Shown piece after piece: positions 27,701 through 36,589 of a stretch of DNA of 64,000 nucleotides. The DNA is from Isurus oxyrinchus (lineage: Eukaryota). The stretch spans positions 110,670,001-110,734,000 of the forward strand of contig JANJGN010000008.1 of assembly GCA_026770705.1 (NCBI GenBank), written 5' to 3'. The position numbers and the translations under genes are program-made. The notes under the pieces are model-generated. The model saw nothing but the letters and a program-made list of their open reading frames with translations. It was not told the DNA's origin and made no database searches. How positions within the stretch are numbered: the stretch's first letter is position 1; each line of letters opens with the position of its first letter.

Positions 27701-29634
27701 GATTCACTGGCGAATCTGATTGGTCTCTCTACACATTGGCGAAGCTGCTGAGTCTCTCCCCTCACTAGTGAATCTGTGAGCTCCCGCCACTCACTGTCGA
27801 ATCTGCTAGTACTGCCACTCACTGGTGAATTTACTACTTCTTCCTCCCACTGGTGAATCTGCTAAATCTGCCATTCTCTGGAGAGTCTGCTAGCTCTCCC
27901 ACTCACAGACGAATCTGCTAAGTCTCTCCCCTCACAGGGGCATCTGCTAGTTCCCTCTTCTCACTGGTTAATCTGCTCATTCCCTACAGTTCACTGGCGA
28001 ATCTGCCATTTTTGCTCCACTCATTGACAAATCTGTTAGTTTCCTCCACTGACTGGAGAACCTGCTTCTTATCTCCAGTCACTGCTGAATCAGCTCTTTC
28101 TTTGCACTCACTAGAGAATCTGCTGGTTCTTTGCTCTCACTGGCACCTAAATTAATTCTCTCCACACACTGCTAAATCTGCTGGTTCCCTCCACTCACTC
28201 ATGAATCTACTTGTTCTCTCCACTCACTGGCCAATCTGTGAATTTTCTGCACTCACTGGTGTGTCTGGTATTTCTCACCACTCACAGCTGAAACTGCTAG
28301 CTTTCTCCACTCTCTGGTGAATCTGCTAGTTCTTAAACTCACTGGCGAATCTGTTAGTCCTCAACACTCAGTAGCGAATCTCATAGCTCTCTCCTCTCAC
28401 TGATGAAACTATTAGTTCTTCCACTCATTGGTGAATCTGCTAGTTCTCACACTCACTTGCGAATCTGCTAGAACTCTCTACTCACTGGAGTATCTGATGG
28501 GTCTCTCCACTCACTGCTGATTCTGCTAGTTCTCCCACTCTCTGGCGAATCTCCTACTTCTTCCACTCACAGGCGAATCTTCTAAGTCTCTCCAGTCACT
28601 GGCGTATCTAATAGTTCTATCCATTGATTGCCAAATCTGCTTGTTTATTTTCCTTTCACTGGCGAATCTGCTATTGCTCTCCACACACTGGTGATTCTGT
28701 TCATTCTTTCCTCTCAATGGTGAATCTGCTATTTCTGTCACTCATTTGCGAATCTTCTAGTTCTCTCCACTCATTGGCGAAGCTGCTGGGTCTCTCCACT
28801 CCCCGGAGTGTCTGCTATTTCTCTCCAGTCGCTGACGCATCTGTTAATTCTCCCCATGCACTGGCGAATCAACTATTTCCATCCACTCACTGGTGAATCT
28901 GCTCGTTGCCTCCACTCACTGGTGTATCTGATACTTCTCTCCACAAATGGGCAAATCTTCTATTTTTTTCCACTCACTGGCGAATCTGCTTTTGCTCTCC
29001 AAACACTGGTGATTCTGCTCATTCTTTCCACTCACTGGCCAACCTGCTAGTTCCCTCCATTAACTGGCGAATCTGCTGGTGGTTGCACTCACTGGTGAAA
29101 CTGCTAGTTCTTCCTTTCACTGTCGAACCTGATATTTGCCTCCACTCACTGGCGATTCTGCTAGTTCTCTCCACTCACTGGCGAACCTGCTATTTGCCTC
29201 CACTCACTGACGAATCTGCAAAACTCTCCACTGACTGGAGTATCTGTTGGGACTCTCCACTCACTGATGATTCTGCTAGTTCTCCCGCTCACTGGCGAAT
29301 CTCCTAATTCTTCCACTCACTGGCGAATCTGATAGTTCTATCCACCTACTGGCAAATCTGCTAGTTTTTTTGCTCTCATTGGCGAATCTGCTATTGCTCT
29401 CCACACACTGGTGAATCTTTTCATTCTTTCCACTCACTGACGAATCTGCTATTTCTGCCACTTACTGGTGAATCTGTTAGTTCTTGCTCTCAATGGTGAA
29501 TCTGCTATTTCTGCCACTCATTGGTGAATCTGCTAGTTCTCTCCACACATTGGCAAAGCTGCTGGGTCTCTCCACTCACTGGCAAATCTGCTATTTCCCT
29601 CCACTCGCTGACGCATCTGCTAGTTCTCGCCACT

Positions 29635-31010
29635 CACTGGTGTATCTGATAATTCTATCCACTAACTGGCAAGTCTTCTATTTTTTCAACTCATTGGCGA
29701 GTCTGCTATTGCTCTCCACACACTGGTGAATCTGCTCATTCTTTCCACTCACTGGCCAACCTGCTAGTTCCCTCCATTCACTAGCGAATCTGCTGGTGCT
29801 TCCACTAACTGGCGAAACTGCTAGTTCTTCCACTCACTGGTGAATTTGCTAGTTCTGACACTCACTAGCGAATCTGCTAGTTCTGCCACTCACTGGTGAA
29901 TCTGCTTGTTCCCTCCACTCCCTGCTGAATCTGCTATATCCTCCATTCACTGGCGAATCAGCTTGTTCTCTGTACACATTGGCAAAGCTGCTGGGTCTCT
30001 CCACTCACTAGTGAATCTGTGAGGTCATCTACTCACTGTCGAATCTGCTAGTTCTGCTAATCACTGGCGAATTTACTACTTCTTCCTCTCACTGGTGAAT
30101 TTGCTAGTTCCGCCACTCAGTGGTGAATCTGCTAGCTCTCCCACTCACAGGTGTATCTGCAAGGTCTCTCCCCTCACAGGGAAATCTGCTAGTTCCATCC
30201 ACTCACTGGTGTATCTGCTAGGTCTCTCCCAACACAGGTGAATCTTCTAGCTCCCTCCACTCGCTGGTGAATCTGCTATTTCTTACCACACACCAACGAA
30301 TCAGCTAGTTCCCTCCACTCACTGGTGTATCTGATAATTCTATCCACTAACTGGCAAATCTATTTTTTTCAACTCACTGGCCAGTCTGCTATTGCTCTCC
30401 ACACACTGGTGAATCTGCTCATTCTTTCCACTCACTGGCCAACCTGCTAGTTCCCTCCATTCACTGGCGAATCTGCTGGTGCTTCCAATAACTGGTGAAA
30501 CTGCTAGTGCTTCCGCTCACTGGTGAATTTGCTAGTTCTGACACTCACTAGCGAATCTGCTAGTTCTGCCACTCATTGGTGAATCTGCTTGTTCCCTCCA
30601 CTCCCTGATGAATCTGCTATGTCCTCTATTCACTGGCGAATCAGCTTGTTCTCTGTACACATTGGCAAAGCTACTGGGTCTCTCCACTCACTAGTGAATC
30701 TGTGTGGTCCCTCTACTCACTGTCAAATCTGCTAGTTCTGCTAATCAGTGGCGAATTTACTACTTCTTCCTCTCACTGGTGAATTTGCTAGTTCCGCCAC
30801 TCAGTGGTGAATCTGCTAGCTCTCCCACTCACAGGCGTATCTGCAAGGTCTCTCCGCTCACAGGGGAATCTGCTAGTTCCATCCACTCACTGGTGTATCT
30901 GCTAGGTCTCTCCCAACTCAGGTGAATCTGCTAGCTCCCTTCACTCGCTAGTGAATCTGCTATTTCTCACCACACACCAACGAATCTGCTAGTTCTCACC
31001 ACTCACTGGC
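29635..31010 (+). repeat. About 684-bp (about 24-monomer) tandem duplication within the satellite
   Basis: Diagnostic variants tgtacacattggcaaagct (29971, 30654) and caccaacgaatc (30291, 30975) are offset by 683-684 bp. Boundaries are approximate. Confidence 0.85.
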
Positions 31011-31077
31011 GAATCAACTATTTCTGTCCACTCACTGGTGAATCTGCTAGCTCTGTCCCCTCACAGGTAAACCTGCT

Positions 31078-31090
31078 AGCTCCCTCCACT
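31078..31090 (+). repeat. Target-site duplication, left copy (AGCTCCCTCCACT)
   Basis: Identical 13-mer at 32291-32303. Flanking bases differ on both sides (t/g and a/t). Paralogous empty sites carry a single copy. Confidence 0.9.
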
Positions 31091-31108
31091 ATAAAAACAA
31101 AAAAAACT

Positions 31109-31177
31109 GCGGATGCTGGAAATCCAAAACAAAAACAGAATTACCTGGAAAAACTCAGCAGGTCTGGCAGCATCGGC
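31109..31177. other. Imperfect inverted repeat (potential 3'-terminal stem-loop of the element RNA)
   Basis: GCGGATGCTG (31109-31118) versus CAGCATCGGC (31168-31177): 9 of 10 positions complementary. It lies between the ribozyme and the element 3' end. Confidence 0.5.
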
Positions 31178-31189
31178 GGAGAAGAAAAG

Positions 31190-31228
31190 AGTTGACGTTT
31201 CGAGTCCTCATGACCCTTCGACAGAACT
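31190..31228 (-). ncRNA. Minimal type I hammerhead ribozyme motif (variant core) in the PLE 3' region
   Basis: Minus strand reads AGUU-CUGUCGA-A-GGGUC-augag-GACUC-GAAA-CG-UC-AACU. Helix I is AGUU/AACU; helix II is GGGUC/GACUC (5 bp, one G-U); a palindromic ACGU replaces helix III; the GUC cleavage triplet is present. This matches the known architecture of PLE minimal hammerheads except A6>U. Confidence 0.75.
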
Positions 31229-31272
31229 TGATTTCGAGTCCAAGAAAGAGTTGAAATATAAGCTGGTTTAAG

Positions 31273-31311
31273 GTGTGTGTGTGGGGGGCGGAGAGATAGA
31301 GAGAGAGAGAG
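31273..31311 (+). repeat. Compound microsatellite (GT)5-G6-(GA)n in the element 3' UTR
   Basis: gtgtgtgtgtggggggcggagagatagagagagagagag read directly from the sequence. Confidence 0.8.
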
Positions 31312-31570
31312 GTGGTTGTGTAGACAAACAAGCAGTGATAGAAGCAGATCATCAAAAGATGTCAGTGACAATGGTACAAAAGAACACATAGGTGTTAAAG
31401 TTAAAGTTGGTGATATTATCTAAACGAATGTGCTAATTAAGAATGGATGGTAGGGCACTCAAGGTACAGCTCTAGTGGGGGTGGGGGGAGCATAAAAGAT
31501 TTTAAAATATTTAAAAATAATGGAAATAGGTGGGAAAAGAAAAATCTATATAATATATAGGGAAAAAAAA

Positions 31571-31614
31571 GGGGGAAAAGGGGGAAACAGAAAGGGGGTG
31601 GGGATGGGGGAGGG
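31571..31614 (+). other. G-quadruplex-forming motif (six G-runs) just downstream of the element stop codon, on the antisense/cDNA strand
   Basis: GGGGG-aaaa-GGGGG-aaacagaaa-GGGGG-t-GGGG-at-GGGGG-a-GGG; the last four runs have 1-2 nt loops. Confidence 0.6.
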
Positions 31615-31617
31615 AGC

Positions 31618-32322
31618 TCACGACCTAAAGTTGTTGAATTCAATATTCAGTCCGGAAGGCTGTAAGGTGCCTAGTCGGAAGATGAGGTGTTGTTCCTCCA
31701 GTTTGCGTTGGGCTTCACTGGAACAATGCAGCAAGCCAAGGACAGACATGTGGGCAAGAGAGCAGGGTGGAGTGTTAAAATGGCAAGCGACAGGGAGGTT
31801 TGGGTCATTCTTGCGGACAGACCGCAGGTGTTCTGCAAAGAGGTCGCCCAGTTTACGTTTGGTCTCTCCAATGTAGAGGAGACCACATTGGGAGCAACGA
31901 ATGCAGTAGACTAAGTTGGGGGAAATGCAAGTGAAATGCTGCTTCACTTGAAAGGAATGTTTGGGCCCTTGGACGGTGAGGAGAGAGGAAGTGAAGGGGC
32001 AGGTGTTACATCTTTTGCGTGGGCATGGGGTGGTGCCATAGGAGGGGGTTGAGGAGTAGGGGGTGATGGAGGAGTGGACCAGGGTGTCCCGGAGGGAGCG
32101 ATCCCTACGGAATGCCGATAAGGGGGGTGAAGGGAAGATGTGTTTGGTGGTGGCATCATGCTGGAGTTGGCGGAAATGGCGGAGGATGATCCTTTGAATG
32201 CGGAGGCTGGTGGGGTGATAAGTGAGGACAAGGGGGACCCTATCATGTTTCTGGGAGGGAGGAGAAGGCGTGAGGGCGGATGCGCGGATGAGCTCCCTCC
32301 ACTTACTGGTTAATCTGCTCAT
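31618..32322 (-). pseudogene. Truncated PLE ORF: post-RT linker, Cys-rich Zn-finger-like motif and GIY-YIG endonuclease. The first 10 codons are satellite-derived.
   Basis: 234-aa open frame. C100-x4-C105-x2-C108; NLVYCIRCSQCGLLYIGET (GIY-YIG); CCHH residues C143/C146/H165/H181; LEEQHLI (Glu); GLN (Asn); TGA at 31620-31618. The usual RFxEH reads LFAEH here. No RT domain. Confidence 0.88.
32291..32303 (+). repeat. Target-site duplication, right copy (AGCTCCCTCCACT)
   Basis: Identical to 31078-31090. Removing the element plus one copy restores monomer register and matches the empty paralog near 35830-35960. Confidence 0.9.
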
Positions 32323-35300
32323 TCCCTCCAGTCACTGGCGAATCTGCTGTTTTTCTCTGCTCACTGACAAATCTGCCAGTTTCCTCCACTGACTGGAGAA
32401 TTTGCTTCTTATCTCCACTCACTGCTGAATCAGCTTTATCTATGCACTCACTGGAGAATCTGCTGGTTCTGTGCTCTCACTGGTGCATAAATTACTTTTC
32501 TGCACACACTGCTAAATCTGTTGGTTCCCTCCACTCACTCATGAATCTGCTTGTTCTCTCCACTCACTGGCGAAACTGTGAGTTTTCTCCACTCACTGGC
32601 ATATCTGGTATTTCTCACCACTCACTGACGAATCTTCTATTTTTCTCCACTCACTGGTGAATCGGCCAGTTTTTACACTCACTGGCGAATCTGTTAGTCC
32701 TCAACACTCATTAGCGAATCTCATAGCTCTCTCCACTCACTGACGAAACTATTGGTTCTTCCAGTTATTGGCGAATCTGCTAGTTTTCACACTCACTGGC
32801 AAATCTGCTAAAACTCTCTACTCACTGGAGTAACTGCTGGGTCTCATCACTCACTCGTGATTCTGCTAGTTCTACCACTCACTGGCGAATCTCCTACTTC
32901 TTCCACTCACGGGCAAATCTTCTAATTCTCTCCAATCACTGGCGTATCTGATAGTTCTATCCATTGGTTGCCAAATCTGCTTGTTTATTTTCCTCTCACT
33001 GGCGAATCTGCTATTGCTCTCCACACACTGGTGATTCTGTTCATTCTTTCCTCTCAATGGTGAATCTGCTATTTCTGTCACTCATTTGCGAATCTGCTAG
33101 TTCTCTCCACTCATTGGCGAAGTTGCTGGGTCTCTCCACTCCCCAGAGAATCTGCTATTTCTCTCCAGTCGCTGACGCATCTGTTAGTTCTCTCCACCCA
33201 CTGACGAATCAACTATTTCCGTCTACTCACTGGTGAATCTGCTCGTTCCCTCCACTCACTGGTGTATCTGATAGTTCAATCCACTAATGGGCAAATCTTC
33301 TATCTTTTTCCACTCACTGGCGAATCTGCTTTTGCTCTCCACACACTGGAGATTCTGCTCATTCTTTCCTCTCACTGGTGAATCTGCTAGTTATGCCACG
33401 CACTTTCGAATCTGCTATTTCTCTCCACACACTGGCGAATTTCCTCATTCTTTCCACTCACTGACGAATCTGCTAGTTCCCTCCACTCACTGGTGAATCC
33501 GCTGGTGCTTCCACTGACTGGCGAAACTGCTAGTTCTTCATCTCACAGTTGAATCTGCTAGTTCTGTCCCCTCATAAGTGAATCTACTAGTTCCATCCAC
33601 TCACTGGTGAATCTGCTAGGTCTCTCCCCTCACAGTTGAATCTGGTAGCTCCCTCCACTCACTGGTGAATCTACTATTTCTCTCCACTCACTGACGAATC
33701 TGCTCGTTCTCTCCACTCACTGGCGAATTGCTAGTTCTTCCTCTCTCTGGCCAATCTGCTCGTCATCCCCAATCACTGGTGAATTTGTTAGTTCTCTCCA
33801 CTCAATGGTGATTCTGCTAATTCTCCCACCCACTGGCAACTCTTCTAGATTTCTCCACTCACGACCGAATCTGCTTGTTTTTTTTTTTCTCACTGATAGA
33901 ATCTGCTTGTTGTCTCCATTCACTGGCGAATCTTCTAGTTCTTCCACTCACTGGCAAATCTGCTTGTACTCTCCACTCACGGGTGAATCTGCTACTCCTC
34001 TCCACTCACTGGTGAATCTGTTTGTTGTCTCCACTCATTGGCGAATCTGCTTGTTCCCTCAACTCACTAGCAAATCTGCTATTCTTCTCCACAAACTGGT
34101 GAATCTGATAGTTCTCTTTTCTCACTGGTGAATCTGCTATTCTCTCCACTCACTGGTGAAACTGGAGGGTCTCTCCACTCTCTGGCAAATTTCATAGTTC
34201 AGTCGACACACTGACAAATCTGCTAGTTCTTCCACTCAGTGGCGAATCTGCTAGTTCTCACACTCACTGGTGAATTTGCTAGAACTCTCCACTCACTGGA
34301 GTATCTGTTGGGTCTCTCCACTCATTGGCGATTCTGCTATTTGCCTCCACTCACTGGCAAATCTGCAAAACACTCCACTGACTGGAGTAAATGCTAGGTC
34401 TCTCCACTCACTGACGATTCTGTTAGTTCTCCCACCCACTGGTGAATCTCCTAATTCTTCCACTCACTGGTGAATCTGATAGTTCTATCCACTAACTGGC
34501 AAATCTGCTAGTTTTTTTCCTCTCACTGGCGAATCTGCTATTGCTCTCCACACACTGGTGAATCTGCTTGTTCTTTCCACTCACTGGCAAAGCTGCTGGG
34601 TCTCTCCACTCACTGGCGAATCTGCTATTTCTCTCCACCTACTGACGCATCTGCTAGTTCTCTCCACTCACTGGTGAATCAGCTGTTTCCGTCCACTCAC
34701 TGGTGAATCTGCTCGTTCCCTCCACTCACTGGTGTATCTGATAATTCTATCCACTAACTGGCAAATCTTCTATTTTTTTCAACTCACTGGCGAGTCTGCT
34801 ATTGCTCTCCACACACTGGTGAATCTGCTCATTCTTTCCACTCACTGGCCAATCTGCTAGTTCCCTCCATTCACTGGCAAATCTGCTGGTGCTTCCACTA
34901 ACTGGCGAAACTGCTAGTTCTTCCTCTCACTGGTGAATCTGCTATTTCTGCCACTCACTGGCGAATCTGCTAGTTCTGCCACTCACTGGTGAATCTGCTA
35001 GTTCCCTCCACTGCCTGGTGAATCTGCTATGTCTTCCATTCACTGGCGAATCATTTTGTTCTCTGTACACATTGGCAAAGCTGCTGGGTCTCTCCACTCA
35101 CTAGTGAATCTGTGAGCTCCCTCCACTCACTGTCGAATCAGCTAGTTCTGCTACTCACTGGCGAACTTACTACTTCTTCCTCTCACTGGTGAATTTGCTA
35201 GTTCTGCCACTCAGTGGTGAATCTGCTAGCTCTCCTGCTCAAATTCGTATCTGCTAGGTCTCTCCCCTCACAGAGGAAACTGCTAGTTCCATCCACTCAC

Positions 35301-36589
35301 TGGTGTATCTGCTAGGTCTCTCCCAACACAGATGAATCTGCTAGCACCCTCCACTCGCTGGTGAATCTGCTATTTCTACCCACACACTGACGAATCTGCT
35401 GGTTTTCTCCACTCACTGGCGAATCAGCTATTTCCGTCCACTCACTGGTGAATCTGCTTGTTCTCTCTACACATTGGCGAAGCTGCTGGGTCACTCCACT
35501 CACTAGTGAATCTGCTAGCTCCTTCCACTCACTGGCGAATCAGCTATTTCCGTCCACTCACTGGTGAATCTGCTTGTTCTCTCTACACATTGGCGAAGCT
35601 GCTGGGTCACTCCACTCACTAGTGAATCTGCGAGCTCCCTCCACTCACGGTCGAATCTGCTGGTTCTGCCACTCACTGGTGAATTTACTACTTCTTTCCC
35701 TCACTGGTGAATCTGCTAAATCTGCCATTCACTGGCGAATCTGCGAGCTCTCCTGCTCATAGTCGAATCTGCAAGGTCTCTCCCCTCACAGGGACATCTG
35801 CTGGTTCCATCCACTCACTGGTGAATCTGCTAGCTCTCTCCCCTTACAGGTGAATCTGCTCGCTCCATCCACTTACTGGTTAATCTGCTCATTCCCTCCA
35901 GTCACTGGCGAATCTGCTGTTTTTCTCCAGTCACTGACAAATCTGCCAGTTTCCTCCATTGACTGGAGAATCTGCTTCTTATCTCCACTCACTGCTGAAC
36001 CAGCTTTTTCTGTGCACTCACTGGAGAATCTGCTGGTTCTGTGCGCTCACTGGTGCATAAATTATTTCTCTGCACACATTGCTAAATCTGCTAGTTCCCA
36101 CCACTCACTCGAGAATCTGCTTGTTCTCTCCACTCATTGGCCAATCTGCTAGTTCTGTCCACTCATTGGCGAAACTGAGTGTCCTCCACTCACTGGCGTA
36201 TCTGGTATTTCTCACCACTCACTGATGAATCTGCTAGCTTTCTGCACTCACTGGTGAATCTGCTAGTTCTTACACTCAGTGGCGAATCTGTTAGTCCTCA
36301 ACACTCACTAGCAAATCTCTTAGATCTCTCCACTCACTGACGAAACTATTAGTTCTTCCAGTCATTGGCGAATCTGCTGGTTCTCCCTCTCACTGGCGAA
36401 TCTCCTACTTCTTCCACTCACAGGCGAATCTTCTAATTCTCTCCAATCACTGGTGTATCTGATAGTTCTATCCAATAACTGCCAAATCTGCTCGTTTTTT
36501 TTCCCACTCACTGGCGAATCTGCTATTGCTCTCCACACACTGGTGATGCTGCTTATTCTTTCCTCTCAGTGGTGAATCTGATATTTCTG

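Follow-up and report, generated by a model that had tools for sequence, protein, structure and literature searches.

A family-wide U6 variant of the minimal hammerhead motif in an abundant Penelope-like element

A hammerhead motif that departs from the consensus core at one position raises the question of whether a single copy has decayed or a whole family has changed and, in the latter case, whether the motif still cuts, cuts slowly or is kept for its shape. The motif lies at 31190–31228 (minus strand) of the window, by which we mean the whole 64-kb stretch of DNA analysed, which is a 29-bp satellite array interrupted by a single insertion. The satellite occupies 1–31090 and ~32297–64000; it is diverged, with a strong strand skew, and its copies match one another at ~70% in the scanned stretch 28000–36000. 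The 1,200-bp insertion (31091–32290, minus strand) is 94–98.5% identical to sister copies over ~1.2 kb and is delimited by a 13-bp target-site duplication whose left (31078–31090, plus strand) and right (32291–32303, plus strand) copies are identical in sequence. Because this duplication borders the insertion, the element end at 31091 is fixed. The insertion represents the final 1,200 bp of a 5′-truncated Penelope-like element (PLE) and contains, in minus-strand order, the end of the ORF with a Cys-rich linker and a GIY-YIG endonuclease, a 3′ untranslated stretch, the hammerhead and 103 further bases. The ORF end (31618–32290, minus strand), itself 5′-truncated, aligns with the 925-aa frame in a sister locus (L095) at 94% identity across 234 aa. 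The last 103 nt (31091–31193, minus strand) include the optional ~35-nt PLE tail and, judging from sister-copy ends and PMC11167929, would be the region in which reverse transcription starts (here and below, papers are cited for those parts of them that we considered). The window copy is without RT, has one hammerhead motif only and is probably dead.

Read on the minus strand from 31228 to 31190, the motif opens with AGUU, the 5′ strand of helix I, followed by a CUGUCGA core and an extra A; it continues with a helix II of five base pairs, GGGUC/GACUC, which includes one G-U pair and encloses a 5-nt loop, and it closes with GAAA, CGUC and AACU, the last being the 3′ strand of helix I. The consensus core C3 U4 G5 A6 N7 G8 A9 is departed from at position 6, which is U (the plus-strand base at 31221 is A), and G12 A13 A14, A15.1-U16.1 and H17 are all present. 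In place of helix III (A15.1-U16.1) stands the palindrome ACGU (31195–31198, minus strand), which is the same in every subfamily majority and is predicted from the dimer model of PMC4209133 to serve as a dimerisation arm. From hammerhead geometry, cleavage is predicted after the GUC (C17), between 31194 and 31193 (minus strand), which leaves 103 nt up to the end of the element at 31091. All hammerhead parts named in the original prediction were found where it had placed them, both in the sequence and by descriptor scan. The extra A that follows A9, which it had pointed out, is standard, as PLE minimal hammerheads normally have an extra nucleotide between A9 and helix II (PMC4209133). Together with the shuffles and the helix II covariation described below, these features identify a minimal type I hammerhead with a U6 core in the pseudo-LTR of a PLE.

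A relaxed descriptor in which positions 6-7 were left free found one site in the 64-kb window, 31190–31228, and 0 matches when the 1.2-kb insertion was shuffled 2,000 times. An Rfam search gave no match for the hammerhead at 31190–31228 at E≤10, and the folding energy of the monomer showed no extra stability relative to shuffles (z 0.75–1.03). The isolated double-hammerhead dimer has a predicted energy of −10.1 kcal/mol versus −18.2 for a competing dimer with swapped helices II; nearest-neighbour dimer energies ignore the tertiary core, and these values were left out of the argument. A permuted type II reading by way of the upstream GACUC-GAAA was rejected, since it needs the same U6 box and rescues nothing.

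If U6 were a private mutation or a sequencing error of the window copy, other copies should carry A6. Exact pattern matches counted in the 4.98-Gb genome, which judging by its size and repeat content is probably shark-like, argue otherwise: a 33-base pattern that leaves core positions 6-7 open matches exactly at 72,102 places, among which position 6 is A in 106 and G in 68, that is, 99.8% are not A6. With 106 A6 and 68 G6 among 72,102 matches, A6 in the youngest subfamily is therefore at about the level of background transversion. With a looser pattern, 92,182 non-A6 and 1,568 A6 matches were obtained, so that a strict CUGANGA search misses ~98% of the family, as had been foreseen; the family is recently active and very abundant, with roughly 70,000–90,000 copies. 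For an unbiased sample, 101 copies were picked by a downstream anchor (98,951 matches) that excludes the motif, and in the 77 of these copies that reach position 6, it is U in 76, C in 1 and A in 0. Contigs of runs from two organisms, which we presume to be RNA runs and which show neither RNA ends, strand nor level, contained no position-6 variant above 5% or 10%. In view of the family-wide counts and of these contigs, we exclude private decay or error and give it practically no credence; the original proposal that a variant common to the whole family, rather than decay of the window copy, explains U6 stands on the 106 of 72,102 matches with A6 and the 76 of 77 unbiased copies with U6.

The A6 matches fall mostly in older subfamilies with different flanks and a different loop II, and the flanks of retrieved loci contained a further family, more diverged again, that has A6 and another helix II sequence. 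Median divergence of the tail from the subfamily majority is 8.1% (16 copies) and 4.8% (11 copies) in the A6 subfamilies A and B, 3.3% (30 copies) and 5.6% (32 copies) in two early U6 subfamilies and 1.6% (23 copies) in the youngest subfamily; the early-U6 values are out of order, and only the oldest and the youngest subfamilies are well separated. In the two early U6 subfamilies (1,149 and 2,838 matches), U6 was present in 97/100 and 95/100 among the matches listed. Because the older subfamilies carry canonical A6, U6 is, by this sequence comparison, derived, having arisen once and been retained through three later subfamilies. A6 was replaced by U a single time, and the change then became fixed in tens of thousands of copies of a young PLE family. 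Across the subfamilies compared, no compensating or other core change accompanies U6. Of note, both arms of inverted insertions (L055/L056 and L059/L060) carry one rare A6 variant, and therefore either one template gave rise to both arms or the arms were homogenised later. An older A6 subfamily (L061, L069, L078, L079, L089; 1497–1535) has C opposite A, a mismatch, where the second base pair of helix I should be, which is expected to weaken the ribozyme.

The same genome contains head-to-tail units of 3.32–3.35 kb that have one hammerhead per unit, flanking RT+GIY-YIG frames. Two frames are free of stops, one of 926 aa (L091:5210–7987) and one of 925 aa (L095:6886–9660), with a U6 motif at both sides of each; in Pfam, these frames match RVT_1 (E 7e-08 and 1.3e-05) and GIY-YIG (E 9e-04, below the curated cut-off). 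Because open-frame tandem units are flanked by U6 motifs, the family moved with U6. At L091:1701–8500, three head-to-tail U6 motifs are spaced by 3,353 and 3,340 bp and accompany two frames, one stop-free with 926 aa and the other frameshifted, making this a candidate source locus. A transcript through a tandem unit has two motifs, and a dimer could therefore form in cis in source elements. The claim that any dimer must form in trans accordingly holds for the truncated window copy and fails for source elements, in which a second hammerhead lies 3.3 kb away. Tandem and inverted arrangements and an optional tail were observed, as in EN+ Penelope-like elements. In the window frame, the Cys-rich linker CPRKRCNTC precedes the GIY-YIG motif and fits the CX2-5CxxC pattern of PMC8557442; by its linker, which Neptune shares with Nematis, the element would be Neptune- or Nematis-type. 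The ORF starts ~135 nt downstream of the cut. In young subfamilies, an ATG in loop II opens an 18-codon frame (31208–31153, minus strand) upstream of the main ORF start, and in older A6 copies it is core positions 6-8 that form an ATG; such ATGs, inspected by eye, open short frames only.

What would U6 do to catalysis? A natural A6C hammerhead from phage Bcep176 has a kobs of <0.1 per min, and position-6 changes are called low-activity (PMC3088659). In a second hammerhead, A6C at 300 uM Mg2+ lowered the rate from 0.3 to 3.55e-6 per min, and in Mn2+ it stayed at 0.18 (PMC7151607). Among minimal PLE hammerheads, cleavage is slow even when position 6 is A (PMC4209133). Because A6C is slow in Mg2+, we infer by analogy that U6 likely weakens self-cleavage and, to judge from the A6C data, that it may slow catalysis by orders of magnitude in Mg2+. 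Our working hypothesis is that U6 makes an attenuated hammerhead, that cleavage is not needed for retrotransposition, and that the fold is kept for a structural role, a reading whose chances of being right we judge to be even. Two other observations from known elements bear on it: in the anole Poseidon element, hammerhead mutants leave insertion in vitro unaffected (PMC11167929), and Naiads proliferate without canonical hammerheads (PMC8557442).

The same literature is compatible with U6 being a slow but working ribozyme, in which residual cleavage would be selected and U6 would act as a rheostat that leaves most of the RNA uncut; cleavage might then be helped by the element's protein, by a cis dimer of the two pseudo-LTR motifs or by Mn2+. 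That A6C variants retain some activity, at a low level, and recover in Mn2+ (PMC7151607), that cleavage by the anole hammerhead is protein-dependent (PMC11167929) and that tandem units provide a partner in cis all speak for this, and the retained G12, A13, A14, G5, G8, UH site and palindrome would also be expected of a ribozyme that is still active. However, A6 revertants failed to spread (106 versus 68 with G6), and U6 lacks a compensating core change. Considering the sequence evidence on both sides, we see residual cleavage as possible, if somewhat doubtful.

The history of changes after U6 offers a way to ask whether the fold still matters. Between the majorities of the first and the last U6 subfamily, 0/31 core and helix positions differ, and 4/7 free positions do (N7, loop II, H17); as background for the same comparison, 39/357 third positions of the ORF and 33/311 positions of the 3′ UTR changed (~11%). 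The subfamily majorities hold in copies chosen by their flanks only (7, 13 and 50 copies). With 7 of the 38 positions free, all four changes would fall on them with a chance of 5e-4, and the chance of 0/31 changes at a rate of 11% is ~0.03. The tail stretch +21..+69 is nearly as conserved, with 2/47 positions changed, and the constraint may therefore be partly regional. A covariation set of 26 rows from all subfamilies, which are hand-picked and related so that shuffle counts on them are not probabilities, has helix II paired in 95% of cells, with G-C replaced by A-U in 5/26 rows and the next pair being G-U, A-U or G-C. In these rows, helix I is paired in 85% of cells without real covariation; a check on covariation of both helices, as proposed originally, thus came out positive across subfamilies for helix II and negative for helix I. 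Because changes are limited to free positions, with 0/31 at core and helix positions, the hammerhead fold seems, as far as sequence comparison goes, to be still constrained after U6.

This pattern is again shared ground between the structural reading and a slow ribozyme, given that the changes after U6 occurred only where a working hammerhead tolerates them (N7, loop II, H17 U->C, helix II G-U->A-U), with 4/4 in the 7 free of 38 positions. It fits less well with the motif being a dead, hitch-hiking relic, whose ribozyme was killed by U6 and whose conservation would reflect a short time or an overlapping DNA signal such as an internal promoter. In support of a relic, the constraint test is modest (p ~0.03 versus background), the motif is located exactly at the inferred transcript start (see below), PLEs possess internal promoters (PMC2377424), and the helix I C-A mismatch of the older A6 subfamily suggests that the motif was damaged before. 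Yet the changes fall solely on positions that are free in a hammerhead, and in U6 copies position 10.2 in helix II toggles between G and A, both opposite U; a DNA element would have no need of this. We consider a relic unlikely.

The youngest subfamily has a peculiar upstream stretch (31229–31253, minus strand) that, in the subfamily majorities, resembles the 3′ strands of helices I and II. Close repeats of two parts of the motif region, the 3′ strand of helix II with GAAA and the post-cut sequence, lie within it; it is predicted to pair with the 5′ half of the motif, and intermediates in L033, L036, L045 and L055 suggest that it was built up stepwise. With upstream sequence included, the predicted pairing probability of helix II is 0.00–0.03 in the youngest subfamily versus 0.17–0.47 in older subfamilies; these folding models weakly suggest that the stretch may compete with the hammerhead fold. 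Such competition from gained flanks would count against selection for residual cleavage. The predicted folding cost showed no steady rise along the lineage.

A ribozyme that cuts its RNA might leave a footprint in the 5′ junctions of copies. Downstream of the cut, sister copies run on for ~70 or ~103 nt before they end, and the two-ended PLE tail has been traced to two start sites of reverse transcription (PMC11167929). Because copies end 70 or 103 nt past the cut, those that reach upstream of the site came from RNA that was uncut there; reverse transcription thus passed through an uncut hammerhead. Among the 101 tail-anchored copies, which come from 3.9 Mb of one contig and include non-independent paired arms of inverted insertions, 0 have a 5′ junction at −3..+1 and 28 have one at −30..−39, or 25 after dropping 3 that continue with older-subfamily sequence. 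This hot spot (31223–31232, minus strand; 25/101) coincides with the 5′ edge of helix I. Given that one copy in four stops at this edge and hardly any at the cut, we infer that the template RNA would start there. The observation was made in loci L186–L215 and L246–L292.

A targeted search for junctions within −5..+3 gave 983 matches. In a hand tally of the 100 among the matches listed, junctions from +3 to −5 numbered 8, 7, 20, 6, 14, 20, 11 and 14. The 20/100 at +1 among these matches, with 7 and 6 at the neighbouring positions, would favour slow cleavage, but the excess at the cut is not significant (p=0.17 under a flat model with assumed base frequencies), and several of the +1 junctions share microhomology with an inverted arm. 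Copies that begin at the cut make up at most ~0.4%. In an A6 control subfamily (52 matches, inspected by eye and with no denominator), there was likewise no clear pile-up of junctions at the cut, and therefore the missing footprint does not single out U6. A look for RNA 5′ ends at 31193 had been proposed as a check; in the genomic proxy, there is no peak at this position (0/101; no significant excess), and the peak lies ~35 nt upstream.

In older subfamilies, a pyrimidine tract precedes TTAGTTC at the 5′ edge of helix I, a sequence that resembles both a 3′ splice site and an initiator. The possibility that the AG at the opening of helix I terminates an intron was considered and rejected, in that no spliced joint was present among the joints listed (15, in contigs of 4 runs), although contigs cannot show absence. 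In D. virilis, an intron ends at a comparable AG (PMC4209133).

Taken together, we favor the attenuated, structural hammerhead, in the form set out as follows. With U6 fixed, the fold would persist at the 5′ end of the RNA and beside the start of reverse transcription. Cleavage would be dispensable there, even costly, as it would sever the template. The fold itself may still be selected, for instance as an element for binding or folding with the element's protein. More broadly, we speculate, tentatively and knowing that it is rather improbable as a whole, that this PLE lineage switched its hammerhead from catalyst to structure, that a core change without compensation had an advantage, the template being uncut RNA, that an expansion to about 100,000 copies followed, and that the fold at the RNA 5′ end was kept for protein binding or template definition.

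The role of the hammerhead in Penelope-like elements is an open question (PMC8557442), and cleavage is unnecessary in vitro for Poseidon (PMC11167929). If U6 is inactive in so successful a family, cleavage would be dispensable in vivo; if it is active, the consensus of the hammerhead core widens; and if the switch from catalyst to structure is true, the family is a natural experiment in which PLE hammerheads are selected for shape, not cutting. With dated A6 and U6 subfamilies of one lineage and intact full-length elements, it offers natural test sequences. It also demonstrates that CUGANGA descriptors can miss ~98% of the dominant hammerhead family of a genome. Elements of this class, minimal hammerheads and, in general, variants at position 6 have been described before. 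The literature searched, whose scope excluded Lunse et al. 2017, older mutational surveys (Ruffner 1990) and one supplement of PMC4209133, contained no A6U hammerhead and no rate for one, nor A6U fixed in a dominant vertebrate PLE family; any of the three sources outside that scope might list A6U.

Among known systems, the minimal hammerheads of metazoan PLEs (Cervera and De la Pena 2014, PMC4209133) share with this motif the 4-bp helix I, G10.1-C11.1, the extra nucleotide before 10.1, the palindromic 15.2-16.2, the missing loop III and the pLTR location, as well as solo copies and inverted pairs throughout the genome. As a variant of the core, the parts of that paper considered describe a U3-A8 covariation and not A6U, whereas here U6 is fixed in a dominant young family. 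The Bcep176 hammerhead (PMC3088659, PMC7151607) is likewise a natural case in which position 6 is substituted and the core is otherwise unchanged. There, the change is A->C in a single phage sequence that is slow in Mg2+ and better in Mn2+; here, it is A->U in a minimal, dimer-type motif with >70,000 copies. With the Neptune/Nematis EN+ PLEs (Craig et al. 2021, PMC8557442), our element has in common a single ORF with RT plus GIY-YIG at its C terminus, the Cys-rich linker, partial tandems, inverted 5′-truncated copies and a tail of 30–40 bp, but canonical hammerheads are called universal outside Naiad/Chlamys in that paper and the core here is non-canonical. Finally, anole Poseidon PAc (Frangieh et al. 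2024, PMC11167929) also has its hammerhead upstream of a pair of 3′ end points by which the tail is defined, and its insertion template is uncut RNA, as we propose here. PAc differs in having a cleavage-competent core and an ORF start inside stem II, whereas in our element the ORF starts ~135 nt downstream of the cut and the Cys linker is of the Neptune/Nematis type.
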